The translations under genes were made by a program, and so were the position numbers. Positions 26,901 to 49,574 of a stretch of DNA of 64,000 nt are shown here, in pieces. This DNA comes from Antedon mediterranea (taxonomy: Eukaryota; Animalia; Echinodermata), in the NCBI RefSeq assembly GCF_964355755.1, contig NC_092671.1, positions 1,736,001 through 1,800,000 of the forward strand, in the 5' to 3' direction. Under the pieces are notes generated by a model. The model was not told the origin of the DNA, did no database searches, and worked only from the letters and a program-made list of their open reading frames with translations. How positions within the stretch are numbered: the stretch's first letter is position 1; each line of letters starts with the position of its first letter.

Positions 26901-29900
26901 TTATGGTTTGAAATCTGATGCATCAACAATACATTTATTTTGCCTGTACATTTGTAGTAATTCCTTCCATTTGGGATGAGTTTCAAGTAGATCCCGGTTT
27001 CCTGTAATGAAAAGATTAATATTTAAAATGTTTGTTACATAGTCAATGCATTTGTCTTTCAGTATGCCCGTTTCTCTATTATTTAGTTCTTACCTATAAG
27101 AATGAGTCCTTTCTTGGCCCTGGTCAGTGCTACATTCATTTGGTTTTCATCAGCTATAAAACCTAAATTGGTCTTTATCCATCCTACACTTGGTCTCTTT
27201 TCAATCTCAACTCCTGGTAATGACCTTACAGTTGACATGATTACGTAATCCCATTCCTTACCTTTCGGATATAAATTGATTTGTATACATTAATTTGTTT
27301 GATTTTGGATATGGATGGACAAATCATATAATTACCAACCTTAAAATTGAAGTGCGTGACAGACTACACCATTTTAGTGTTTGGGTGTGGGGGAGTGGTT
27401 TGTGGGGAATTTAGTTCAATGACAACCCTAGACAGTCGGAAATGGTACTAGCGCACGTAAAACAAATAATGGAACCTCTAGTTGGTCAGAAATTATCGTA
27501 GCCTACTTTTTCTGTGACTAAGGATAACATTTTTTCATACCGTTTTGATCGTATGATCATTCGGGAAAACACCTCGCAACATGTTATGTGTTTATTCTTT
27601 TAAATAATGCGTGTTTCATTAAAATCACCTGACCGCACGATGCGAGACTGTTAATAACTATGAATCACATTTATACTGTAGATCAACCAATTTTGCAATA
27701 TAACCATACCTTGGCTAAGAAACACAGTTGAAACAAGAATTCCACATTCCTTAAGAGCAGTTCTGATTCGTTTACATTGGAACCGATATTGAGATAGTAT
27801 CACAACATCTTTAGATTCTACTCCTTTCTCCAGAAGTTTACAAGCAATCCGGACCTAAACAAATACAAAATGGTAAAAATATGTAAATGGTATATTTAGG
27901 CTGGTTGATGTATGTAAATAGTATTTTTTTTTTCCAAATAAAAATTTTTAAATGAATGTGCTATAAATGTTCAGGTTTATAGAGAGAAAAAGTATAGCGT
28001 TTAGTGCTTACTAAACTAATTGATTGATTGATTGGAGGTAAAGGATAAGAGATTTGGCCTACTTGTATTTTGTTACTAATCATAATTAAGGAAATTTCAA
28101 AGAAACTGCATGAAGTTGATATTGAATGTAGATGTTTATGTTTGCTTTTCTTCAAGCAGGTTGCATTAGGACCAGGACCTTGTTATTGTCAGAATCTTAT
28201 TTTTTTTCTATCTTATTCTTATTTTTTTCCCCGAATTTTGTTAATCGTGTATCTCTAATTCTTGTCAACATAGGATTGTATAACTTTGTCAGAAGATTGA
28301 CCTCTAACTGTAGATGTATGGTTGATCGTAAATTCTGAACAAAAATTCATTTTTCAATGAAACTTTACAAAAGTGTATTTATAATAATATGGAGAAATTT
28401 TTGACATGATAAAAATAGTATGCTACGCAAATAATTACGCGATTACGTGTATTTAAAATTTCAAAATGAGCAAAATTGATTTCTAATTAATTTCGCGTAC
28501 ATTTCAGGTCATTTTGAGCATTTAAAAATTGTTTGCGTTTTGCGCACACACTTGTGCACACAGCTCGTACAAAGCGTAGAAAAAGGTTTTTGCAATTAAA
28601 TTTTGTTTTTCATACCTTCTGTGGTAGAATTTCATTCATTTTGATTAACTTTAATTGCAAAATAGCGACGCACATGCACGTTAAACTTTAATAATGGTGT
28701 ACTAGAGAATAGGTAATTTAATGCAAATTTTGTGCAAAAATATACCTATTTTGTAACTCCTCAGGATAGCTGAACCCGAACTCGTCAAAGTGACGAGTTC
28801 AAATCTAGTGAAATTTGTATGTTTTCTGTTTTCTTATCTATAATTTTGCCTACATTAAAACTTGGCAATGATCTCTGAACAATGTTTACACCAAAAATGA
28901 AGATTCTTGGACACTCCACTGAAAACACACACATTAGGCTACTGCTGCAAATGCTTTGTAACAAAGTCCTATATTATACAGATATTGCCTTCTTAGAGGT
29001 AAAATATAAGATTTGACATCCCTGAGGGAATGATATTTTGGTCAAGGGAATTTATATTTTCCGAAGCACTAGCTAAGGTAAAACGTTGTCGTGATGATGT
29101 GGACTAATCTTCGCGAGTTCAGTCTCATTAGATGAATTTTGTTTATTTATCGCCAAACGCGAGTGTTGTCACCTGAAAATTACACAGTCAATATCATCGT
29201 ACTTGAGAATTTACTGGATTTTATATGTTTAATGACAGGGTCACGATAATCACGCGAAAATTACTCCGTCAATATCATCGTACTCGAGGATATATACGAT
29301 TTACGATCCTTGCAGCAGTAGTCATGTAATGCAACCAATCACATCCATGTATTTACATAGGCTATGTAATATAAATCATTGTAAACCACTAACCACATGA
29401 TCAACCTCATGTGGGTTGCTTTTGCTTTGTTCACTTGCTTCTAAACTCTTAACAGTTTGGGTTTCCTCTTTACCATTCACGTGGCAGAATATAATTGGAC
29501 AACTGGAACCAGCTGGCCAAAACTCCTGTTCCCAGTTTTCAGTTTTACGATTTATAACATGATCATCTGTCTCTAATTTATTATCGTAGAAAGCTTTTGA
29601 TGGAAACTCGCAGATCTTTGGATGCTAAGAAAGGAAAAATGTAATGAATTGAATTCCAAAAGTCCAATTTAATTGGGCAGTATTTTGTAATGTAATGATA
29701 TACATTTATAATTGAAAAATCAACCTTAGTATCACAATTCAATTGGGTTCATAATACTGCAAAAGTTTGCCAAAATTATGGCGGAATTATCTCACTATGA
29801 TTTTCTGAGAATGTAGTAAAGTGAATTTCAGTAAAATTATATTTGCAAACTGTGAAATATTGATTTGTATTGGCTATTTTACAAGGTCAGAACCCAAGTT

Positions 29901-47900: not shown

Positions 47901-49574
47901 GACAATGCAAGTATATATATATACCATCACCTATTTTTTGTTTACATTTAAAGGAAGTTTAGTTTATTAATCTAATCTTGAGATAAAAATATCCAAAATA
48001 CAATACCTATCACAAATTACAAATTGTCCATTGACAATTTTAAGAGGTGGATTTCGATATTTCCAATTTCTGTCAGTGTCTGAGTCAACCCACTTTTTGT
48101 GTTCTAAAGTGCTGATGTGGGGAAGCAGCAAATCAAAATCAATCTCGCAATAAGAACAGTGGTGATGTACAGGAATGCTCTGAGAGCTTACTTGTTGATT
48201 AGTTTGCAGTGTTCCCGATACTTCTGTAGCAGGTGTGGATATGTGAACCCTTTCAATATTCTGTGCTTTCTGGGTCTGATCCTGTTCAGCAGAATGCACA
48301 TCAGAAAAACTACCAAATGACAAGCCAACAAGCTGTTGGGGTTGCTGCCAGTAAGTGGGTAGTTCAACTGGTGACATGGTATTACTTAATTTCACACTTT
48401 TTTCATTTAGCTTATCAAGAGCAGCTATGTAAATTTGTCGATCTAACTGTGTCTCCCAAGTCTCTTCAAACTCCTGCCGATGTTCGTCTGTAAACAGTAT
48501 TCCTGCTATGTCTTTCAGAAGTTGCCCACTTTGATGCAGTTTCCATATATTTGTAAGAGCATTGGGATCAACAAAAGATACATGGAATACTATAGATCCT
48601 TTTGTTATTTCAACAGCTCCACTACCAGATGATCTAAAGTAAATATTAATTTTCTCTTGTTTGTCACAAGTTATAGAAAAAACAATTTCATTTTCAATTC
48701 CGTGTCTTTTTGAAGATTGTTGGTCTTCAGAATCGTCATATTTCCGTTTTCTAGATAGAGATATGGGTATTTGTTCACCTGTAAGAAAACACAAATATAC
48801 TTTATTCAAAGATGTTGAGTAAGAGAAAGTCATATGACTTTACAAAGGTAAGTAATTTTTTTAAAGTTTAATCTTTGTTTCAGAAAAAAAAAAAATATAT
48901 ATTCAGAAAAAAACCCCTAATACAAAAATTGTTGTATGATTGTTTTGGGATTTGAACAGAGTTTGTTTATTTCTTTTTAATGTTCTGTGCAATTAATTTT
49001 AGAATTAACATTAACACATTAGGTTACTCGTTTTAAACAAAATTTCAATAACAAAAGACAAATACATACTAATGTCAAGTAGACGATTCTTTGCTGTTTG
49101 GTTAAGACGACCTGCAAACCTCTTTATTTTTTCTGGATCATCTTCTAGAATTTTTTCCGTTTCCAGATGAAATACTAAATCCCAAGTAGTAGGGAAATCA
49201 TTGCTCATCAACTTGTAATAAGCAATAATTCTAGTGTAGTCCTTTTTACCAGCATCTCGTAATGCCTTAAACAGTCTTTTCCGATACCCTGATATATTTG
49301 TATCAGACGTATTTTGACCATTTTTTTTCATGTACTCAATTACAAGGGATTGTGCCTTTACTAAACATGAAAGGTTCGCAATTTGGAGCAAAACATGAAC
49401 ATCCTTATCTGCAATAACCCCAATATCTTCAAGGTCATTGAGTAACTGATTCCCTGATTCTGTAGAGGTAAGGTCATCTATAGTGAGGAATTCAAATAAG
49501 AGGAATCTCAACCATTTGTATCTTGGATTTTCGTAGAATGCACTGAAGCTACATTTAAAGTCCATGAAATCCAT
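26901..49574 (-). CDS. HELZ2: HELZ2-like helicase/exoribonuclease with N-terminal tandem DED and TRADD-N-like domain (about 2964 aa, 21 coding exons)
   Basis: Manually spliced, phase-compatible exons: 49574-49070, 48778-48007, 47803-47599, 46960-46835, 46694-46201, 46113-45481, 44664-44274, 44108-43728, 43632-43557, 43373-39896, 33342-33082, 32864-32776, 31828-31700, 31531-31400, 31132-30855, 30629-30433, 30336-30234, 29624-29394, 27854-27710, 27261-27094, 27001-26901. Motifs: C2H2 CSYC..H..H; CCCH-like C..C..C..AHS.EEL.EW; helicase 1 [37 protein letters not shown]....DIDDALS and [11 protein letters not shown]; helicase 2 GPPGTGKT, DEAG, GDHKQL, QYR, NVALTRA. The ZnF-SF1-RNB-SF1 order is diagnostic of the HELZ2 family. 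Confidence 0.9.
28143..28809 (+). mobile_element. Non-autonomous Helitron/Helentron-like element (intronic)
   Basis: 3' end has a perfect 10-bp hairpin GAACTCGTCA-AAG-TGACGAGTTC (28778-28800) followed by CTAG|T. The 5' region is T-rich with simple (TTCTTA) repeats, and the 5' boundary is approximate. Confidence 0.55.
32397..32645 (+). mobile_element. tRNA-derived SINE, copy 2 (intronic, antisense to host gene)
   Basis: A box TGGCTTGGTGG, intact B box GGTTCAAGTCC, anticodon-like stem CTTGG/CCAAG, 20-nt poly(A) tail. Confidence 0.88.
33662..34091 (+). repeat. 5' LTR (430 bp)
   Basis: TGTAGCAGACC...ATTACTAAA. By eye it differs from the 3' LTR by about 2 substitutions and 3 indels. Confidence 0.95.
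34093..34106 (+). promoter_or_regulatory. Primer binding site, tRNA-Trp-like
   Basis: TGGTGACCCTCGAC directly after the 5' LTR; close to the tRNA-Trp PBS TGGTGACCCCGAC. Confidence 0.75.
34132..35037 (+). pseudogene. gag: gag, with two frameshifts (near 34200 and 34410)
   Basis: ATG at 34132 (MEGQQQ...); [24 protein letters not shown] in a second frame; [10 protein letters not shown]...[18 protein letters not shown] in ORF 34414-35037. Confidence 0.85.
34995..38192 (+). CDS. pol: pol polyprotein (protease, RT, RNase H, integrase); RNase H locally disrupted
   Basis: DTGA protease, YIDD RT, DASD and TDHKPL RNase H, HHCC zinc finger and D-D-E integrase (HIDIVG, TTDRG, VERFH). Lies in the -1 frame relative to gag, with GGAAAAC at 35013-35019. 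Confidence 0.93.
38203..38211 (+). promoter_or_regulatory. Polypurine tract
   Basis: GGAAGGGGG 4 nt before the 3' LTR. Confidence 0.8.
38216..38629 (+). repeat. 3' LTR (414 bp)
   Basis: TGTAGCAGACC...ATTACTAAA followed by TSD CCTG. Confidence 0.95.
38690..39845 (-). mobile_element. 5'-truncated non-LTR retrotransposon (CR1/L2/Rex1-Babar-like RT C-terminus and 3' UTR)
   Basis: [44 protein letters not shown] and RLYFLRRL in ORF 39222-39839. It continues after a frameshift in ORF 38920-39177 (SHPL...RSFLPSA). AATAAA plus an (ATTGAAT)n tail at 38690-38725. Confidence 0.9.
44694..45203. mobile_element. Kolobok-like non-autonomous DNA transposon (510 bp, intronic)
   Basis: TTAA|AGATGTATTGTCCCTT ... 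AAGGGAAAATACATCT|TTAA: 16-bp TIR with 1 mismatch, AG..CT termini, TTAA TSD. Confidence 0.8.

Follow-up and report, generated by a model that had tools for sequence, protein, structure and literature searches.

A HELZ2-family gene of the feather star Antedon mediterranea, a crinoid, was found to encode a predicted pair of death effector domains (DEDs) and a TRADD-N-like domain ahead of the zinc finger (ZnF), the two superfamily 1 (SF1) helicases and the OB/RNB nuclease region of HELZ2. The gene lies at 26901..49574 on the minus strand of a 64,000-nt stretch of DNA, which is called the window here and to which all positions refer. Its 21 coding exons specify a protein of 2964 amino acids with the order DED-DED-TRADD-N-ZnF-SF1-OB/RNB-SF1, as judged from the open frame, the splice sites, a database model and paralogs. 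We tentatively read this protein as an RNA-triggered sensor-effector HELZ2, whose ancestral N-terminus was replaced by the predicted DED-DED-TRADD-N-like module. The observations behind this reading are the open frame, the domain order, the motifs, a junction inside one exon, and DED pairs of the same family on an adaptor and caspases of Antedon. The protein is apparently an undescribed DED-DED-TRADD-N-HELZ2 within a known style of invertebrate immune fusion.

Gene model, fusion junction and HELZ2 body

Joined by coordinate, the 21 exons gave 8895 nt, which were translated into 2964 amino acids followed by a TAA stop ending at 26901, with no internal stops. Exon 1 (49574-49070, minus strand) supplied 168 amino acids, including [31 protein letters not shown], and its translation was as quoted in the initial annotation, which had noted two helical repeats there. 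The further claim that this exon is spliced in phase through 20 others into a complete ZnF-SF1-RNB-SF1 protein also held. An independent database model from the same species, P0003 (XP_071943704.1, 3155 amino acids), was identical across all 2964 residues, the exon 1-2 join included; support for the splicing comes from sequence, paralogs and this model. Nineteen introns were GT-AG and one was GC-AG (43727-43633, minus strand), where a gap-free paralog alignment supports the GC donor and the database model takes a GT donor 48 nt later. Relative to the 21-exon model, P0003 contains a 16-amino-acid insert arising from that later donor and a 175-amino-acid insert from transposon sequence in intron 10. 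Both inserts were rejected because they are missing from the paralogs and the larger derives from a transposon, and on this comparison the 21-exon version is the better model. The frame was unbroken over 22.7 kb, and an adjoining HELZ2 copy has stops and frameshifts. Upstream, the 96 nt in frame before the exon 1 ATG contained no methionine codon. Because an AG acceptor sits immediately before 49602, exon 1 is probably not the first of the transcript, and an upstream exon would exist.

The junction between head and body was placed inside exon 2 (48371..48400, minus strand). Likeness to P0112, a stand-alone Antedon DED-DED-TRADD-N protein, stops at amino acid 295, and likeness to the TPR-type HELZ2 paralog P0004 starts at amino acid 305, such that exon 2 carries both the end of the head and the start of the HELZ2 zinc finger. 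The splice between exons 1 and 2 links only DED2 to TRADD-N, as it does in P0112. A purely annotational fusion was rejected, since the switch from head to HELZ2 occurs within exon 2 and not at a join of the gene model.

The body showed the HELZ2 order, SF1-OB/RNB-SF1 after an N-terminal zinc finger region. That region (47599..48158, minus strand) begins with CSYC...H...H from amino acid 376, continues with Cys/His residues in exon 3, and is 57-59% identical to P0004 and P0006. The first Upf1-like SF1 helicase (43240..46113, minus strand) extends from exon 6 into the beginning of exon 10, with GPFGTGKT at amino acid 879 and DEAG at 1007, and the second (26901..31828, minus strand) occupies exons 13-21, with GPPGTGKT at amino acid 2511 and DEAG at 2684. 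Between them, exon 10 encodes OB_HELZ2 and the RNB exoribonuclease domain (39896..42700, minus strand; Pfam RNB E 3e-81, OB_HELZ2 E 7e-17). The RNB motif [11 protein letters not shown] keeps its four aspartates, and together with the Walker A and B motifs of both helicases all of these elements are present: [35 protein letters not shown]. With exon 10 as the query, 107 proteins of 2030-5000 amino acids were retrieved; P0003 ranked first with 100% identity, and the best matches were HELZ2-named (E 0 to 1e-236), far above the DIS3-named ones. By sequence, the gene is a member of the HELZ2 family with intact helicase and RNB catalytic motifs.

Vertebrate HELZ2 (PMC10516660, PMC9839780) has the same arrangement of zinc fingers, two Upf1-like SF1 helicases, OB folds and RNB. 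The human protein, in contrast to that of Antedon, has Asn at the second RNB aspartate. It is interferon-induced, binds RNA unaided and couples ATP-dependent unwinding to 3'-5' decay of structured RNA (PMC10516660), and by analogy we infer similar unwinding and decay for the Antedon protein. In oyster, Helz2 was reported to rise together with RNA sensors after herpesvirus infection (10.64898/2026.05.15.723513).

The predicted DED-DED-TRADD-N-like head

DED1 (amino acids 1-86; 49317..49574, minus strand) and DED2 (amino acids 94-166; 49077..49295, minus strand) both lie in exon 1. The Pfam DED family PF01335 matched exon 1 alone weakly (E 0.054, 14.2 bits), without reaching the curated cut-off of 35.9; the paralog P0005 gave 22.6 bits, and some relatives exceed the cut-off. 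A profile search of 1.84 billion representatives returned 118 relatives of the head. Pfam DED matches were present in 64 of the 117 that were scanned (39/66 at E<=1e-3 and 25/51 at E<=1e-4), some of them being to other DED copies within the same protein. A 61-sequence profile (alignment A2) matched the caspase-8 prodomain over both DEDs with an E of 1.3e-7, and also cFLIP, FADD and PEA-15, and the ESM Atlas placed exon 1 with DED and v-FLIP-like clusters (0.91). The profile check proposed in the initial annotation thus stayed below threshold with PF01335 on exon 1, and succeeded with the 61-sequence profile. No sequence likeness was detected between DED1 and DED2 (shuffle p 0.52; hhalign E 0.16).

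The AlphaFold2 model of residues 1-300, built on the 61-sequence alignment, had a predicted local distance difference test score (pLDDT) of 90.6 and a predicted TM-score of 0.81, and it contained two death folds of six helices each, in the packing of caspase-8. In the Foldseek search with the head model, all nine matches at E<=0.001 were caspase-8 or caspase-8/cFLIP DED entries, and for residues 1-168 the top ten were all caspase-8/cFLIP DED entries. VIA-align superposed the head model on the caspase-8 tandem DED with Z 16.6 and a root-mean-square deviation (rmsd) of 3.5 over 160 residues, and DED1 on the FADD DED (9u7a) with Z 13.5 and rmsd 1.5 over 86. The initial proposal of a resemblance to the tandem DED of caspase-8 and cFLIP was therefore borne out, the death folds being recovered in the model. 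With an alignment of four sequences, the profile found nothing relevant among solved structures, and the AlphaFold run (pLDDT 39.8, fold search without a death fold) was discarded as uninformative once the 61-sequence run gave 90.6. Although Pfam is weak on exon 1 alone, the relatives and the structure agree, which settles the DED identity; residues 1-168 are predicted to form a caspase-8-like tandem DED, and this head structure has good support. The two-domain fold and packing are shared with caspase-8 and cFLIP, and the Phe-Leu (FL) motif of DED1 is kept (F24-L25). Unlike in caspase-8, the tandem DED, which is 13-17% identical to those of caspase-8/cFLIP, continues into TRADD-N and an RNA enzyme instead of a caspase domain.

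The domain that follows in exon 2 (about amino acids 198-298, probably with an additional strand at 170-178; 48390..48692, minus strand) was assigned as TRADD-N-like from PF20694, the ESM Atlas and the structure 1f3v. PF20694 (TRADD-like_N) matched with E 0.00098 and 19.3 bits, under its cut-off of 23.7, and the Atlas assigned the region to TRADD-N with 0.93. In the AlphaFold2 model it is an RRM-like alpha/beta sandwich made of a beta sheet and two helices, and its hairpin bears KGS, corresponding to the small-residue-Ser (GS) motif of TRADD-N. The TRADD-N structure 1f3v was the best non-death-fold match by VIA (Z 7.0, rmsd 3.9, 113 aligned), a middling value with the next row 0.5 lower; TRADD-N was not in the top 50 of the wide VIA search and appeared only in a second look. 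A TRADD-N-centred profile (A5) had no match among solved structures, and when hhalign compared this region with four others linked to HELZ2, the match was weak (probability 14%, E 0.0019). Each line of evidence is moderate, but together they are concordant with a TRADD-N-like domain. The initial annotation was right about the DED pair and the HELZ2 body but had overlooked this domain.

Origin, DED partners and proposed function

The DED-pair profile, made from the deep alignment and crinoid-biased, was run against the 107 proteins of the HELZ2 search, three of which are DIS3-like by name or domains. It found P0003 (domain E 4e-60) and P0005 (1e-56), the next best value being 0.38; of the four Antedon HELZ2 paralogs, these two have the head, and it was not found in the remaining 105 matches. 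As the profile is crinoid-biased and the Anneissia HELZ2 record begins only about 115 residues before Walker A, the true range of the fusion may differ from this count. P0005 (XP_071943708.1) shares the head with E 8.5e-50 and identities of 52% in DED1, 60% in DED2 and 56% in TRADD-N. None of the 118 cluster representatives related to the head matched the HELZ2 body, but the longest has 1832 amino acids and P0003 and P0005 are absent from them, so this search appears blind to long fusions. Most invertebrate HELZ2s begin with a TPR-like segment (read by eye, with TPR families precomputed for some). Both this segment and a conserved region common to vertebrates are missing from P0003 and P0005; in the Antedon protein, the N-terminal region that other HELZ2s have in common is replaced by DED-DED-TRADD-N, the head standing where the ancestral TPR/zinc-finger region would be.

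A quick tree of the RNB region was computed from 33 rows chosen from the 107, with no DIS3 outgroup. The four Antedon paralogs formed one clade (SH-aLRT 100), sister to Anneissia HELZ2 (98), which makes the head graft lineage-specific. At their C-terminal ends, P0112 and its isoform P0228 carry a stretch with 85-86% identity to the start of P0004. Their contig has the same length as that of P0004 and the accessions are adjacent, which suggests that a DED-DED-TRADD-N cassette landed in front of a HELZ2 copy. In the proposed origin, a mobile cassette of this kind would have joined the 5' side of one tandem HELZ2 copy in Antedon's lineage, and the TPR region would have been lost afterwards.

The same locus might instead hold a young fusion with no selected coupling, produced as a by-product of an unstable tandem cluster, in which the head is a passenger or most transcripts end after DED-DED-TRADD-N. 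Such an origin would suit the single recent clade of the four paralogs, the stand-alone P0112/P0228 gene, which enters a HELZ2-like first exon and then stops, and the broken HELZ2 copy and transposons at the locus; the use of transposon pseudo-exons of intron 10 in the database model may also mean that transcript cover there is thin. We consider it improbable, as a single open exon contains the junction, all 2964 codons and the 40 splice sites are preserved, and in two paralogs with heads only 52-60% identical the head is still in frame with the body, a pattern that would hardly be expected without selection.

The adjoining copy (55061-60959, minus strand) is 5'-truncated, begins in the middle of RNB and is closest to P0005. 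Its identification as P0005 itself was rejected because of many substitutions, stops and frameshifts, and the interval up to a tandem repeat at about 62600-64000 yielded no upstream exons.

TRADD-N-like segments were also seen in other HELZ2 proteins. Together with GT4, one precedes HELZ2 in Branchiostoma P0046 (amphioxus) and Oculina P0058 (coral), according to precomputed PF20694 matches, and weaker ones were found with a two-sequence profile in Dendronephthya P0056 (soft coral, E 0.012) and Holothuria P0049 (sea cucumber, E 0.0016). In the quick tree, P0046 and P0058 each group with close relatives without the segment, which suggests that TRADD-N grafts onto HELZ2 were apparently separate and repeated events. 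Such grafts suggest that, outside vertebrates, HELZ2 has long served as a front-line factor against viruses or transposons.

The same DED pair was found on the Antedon caspases P0173 and P0202 and the Antedon DED-DED-Death adaptor P0200, and a cognate adaptor and caspases are therefore present in Antedon. It also occurs on NACHT, Roc-COR, kinase, TRIM-like, very large GTPase, TIR, ZU5 and PARP14-like proteins, and in the stand-alone DED-DED-TRADD-N proteins P0112 and, from Anneissia, P0167 and P0169. Of 20 DED-pair proteins whose species were looked up, 16 were from Antedon and 4 from Anneissia. A complex prediction for the DED pair with the P0173 caspase prodomain scored 0.00; the alignments were not used in it, and it was counted neither for nor against binding. 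The crinoid family of divergent tandem DEDs to which these belong (P0110-P0227) is large, with W131 invariant and R98 and Y120 near-invariant; its members are mostly under the Pfam cut-off and joined to many immune domains.

In marine invertebrates, lineage-specific constant regions of DED and TRADD-N have been described with variable effectors that include Piwi, DDX60, Mov10 and RIG-I-like receptors (Kaur et al. 2021, PMC8195603). Listed examples are DED+DED+TRADD-N+PAZ+PIWI (an Argonaute of Orbicella), CARD+TRADD-N+RLR, Death+TRADD-N+DDX60 and, in Amphimedon, CARD+DED+TRADD-N+Ankyrin+YafQ+SF1+SF1. The Antedon protein resembles these in having DEDs and TRADD-N followed by a variable conflict-related protein within a lineage-specific expansion, and a constant DED+TRADD-N part with varied partners in one lineage was likewise found here. 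It differs from the TRADD-N-SF1 rows labelled HELZ or MOV10, which carry GT4 and not DED, and in the rows covered no death fold was paired with RNB or HELZ2. The term RNB did not occur in the supplements of that paper, counting file 4 in part and excluding file 13, and the remaining rows may bear on novelty. DED grafts on RIG-I-like receptors have also been reported (Yao et al. 2022, PMC8998645), and there too, exon gain within a single lineage supplied an RNA helicase with a death fold. Those receptors combine an SF2 helicase with the RIG-I C-terminal domain (CTD) and have no nuclease, whereas the Antedon protein has two SF1 helicases and RNB; its helicases matched AAA_11/AAA_12 (SF1) strongly, no RIG-I CTD was found in the best 25 of 28 families, and it does not qualify as a RIG-I-like receptor. 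No description of a HELZ2 fused to a DED was found in the literature searched, in which few subscription journals were covered. This agrees with the initial annotation, which knew of no functional description of the fusion, but the design, compared there with RIG-I/MDA5, is less unprecedented than it implied in view of these two papers.

In the sensor-effector reading, the task of the body would be to unwind viral or retroelement RNA and break it down, and RNA loading would cluster or free the head. The head would then dock on an adaptor in which the exposed Phe is retained, instead of building its own caspase-8-type chain, and pass on a death or immune signal via crinoid DED partners, while the TRADD-N-like domain may recruit a TRAF-like partner.

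Several observations weigh against this reading. The RxDL motif, a hallmark of DEDs, is in neither DED, and Ala118-Tyr119 of DED2 aligns to F122-L123 of caspase-8; the DED2 positions rest on sequence-profile alignment. The fusion was seen in one species only, and the database model of P0005 skips the exon 11 region and the start of exon 12, so that this paralog may be damaged, or mis-modelled. No motif like the interferon-stimulated response element was found in the 3 kb upstream, a weak negative as about 0.4 would be expected by chance. Human HELZ2 restricts LINE-1 and lowers L1-RNA-induced interferon rather than signalling (PMC9839780).

Exposed F122/L123 in DED2 of caspase-8 are required for chain extension but not for recruitment (PMC3477315). 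Because the DED2 Phe-Leu aligns to Ala-Tyr, self-nucleated caspase-8-type DED filaments are doubtful for this protein, and the initial idea that RNA would nucleate DED filaments with caspase-8 is weakened. Of 55 family rows, caspases among them, 39 had A, G or S at the position of the exposed Phe. The adaptors P0200 (FM) and P0212 (FC) keep Phe, and the caspases P0173 (AY) and P0202 (AF) do not, nor do the NACHT protein P0144 and the very large GTPase P0128; across the family, the DED2 FL motif was absent except in the DED-DED-Death adaptors examined. As the loss is family-wide, the crinoid DEDs may assemble through a different interface, or the part of this protein may be limited to being recruited. 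A DED family without the caspase-8 chain motif may reveal another mode of DED assembly.

Recruitment alone would make the protein an effector: an upstream DED platform (an NLR or death receptor with its adaptor) would pull in and switch on the nuclease, as caspases are recruited through their DED prodomain, and RNA would be degraded during an immune or death response. This is possible but on present evidence rather unlikely. The missing Phe, shared with P0173 and P0202 and kept in P0200 and P0212, is in line with it, as are the recruitment without chain growth of caspase-8 lacking the DED2 FL motif (PMC3477315) and the view of Kaur et al. (PMC8195603) that the variable C-termini in fusions of this kind are predicted effectors. 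However, P0144 and P0128 also lack Phe, which means that a receiver cannot be recognised by the missing residue, and HELZ2 binds RNA unaided (PMC10516660).

A damper, which removes stimulatory RNA while its DED pair caps DED chains like cFLIP or viral FLIPs and limits death signalling, is more improbable still. The missing FL motif, the abrogation of L1-RNA-induced interferon by human HELZ2 (PMC9839780) and the matches of cFLIP and vFLIP structures at Z 12-14 would agree with such a role, but caspase-8 matches better (Z 16.6 versus 12.6-13.8) and the motif loss is family-wide, not particular to this gene.

Returning to the sensor-effector reading, a bolder form of it, which we regard as unlikely, is a single-chain RNA sensor, shredder and death switch: foreign RNA on the helicases would be degraded by the RNB and would also drive the DED-DED-TRADD-N head to form a crinoid-specific, FL-independent DED platform with Antedon's own caspases. 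HELZ2, repeatedly and separately grafted with TRADD-N in amphioxus, corals, soft coral, sea cucumber and crinoid, would then be more than a nuclease, namely a scaffold for pattern recognition of ancient origin. If the coupling is real, RNA recognition, RNA destruction and death-fold output would be combined in one animal chain with an SF1 helicase and an RNase II-type nuclease, unlike the RIG-I-like design. With a cognate adaptor and caspases in the same genome, the gene allows a direct test of whether the predicted marine-invertebrate DED+TRADD-N grafts signal, although the reach is limited by the DED version being so far in one species.

Transposons at the locus

Intron 10 contains a long terminal repeat (LTR) retrotransposon antisense to the gene (33662-38629, plus strand), with LTRs at 33662-34091 and 38216-38629 that are 95% identical. 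Its open reading frames are gag-like (34375-35037) and pol (34971-38192; protease, reverse transcriptase, RNase H and integrase), and from the domain order we take it to be of the Ty3/gypsy type. The element resides in a gene whose human relative restricts retroelements. The same intron carries a reverse transcriptase fragment, probably LINE-type (38920-39848, minus strand; RVT_1 E 1.7e-15), which is partly coding in the database model. A solo LTR, degenerate but belonging to the family of the intronic element, lies about 500 bp upstream of the ATG in the sense of the gene (50081-50315, minus strand), and could supply promoter or 5' untranslated sequence.

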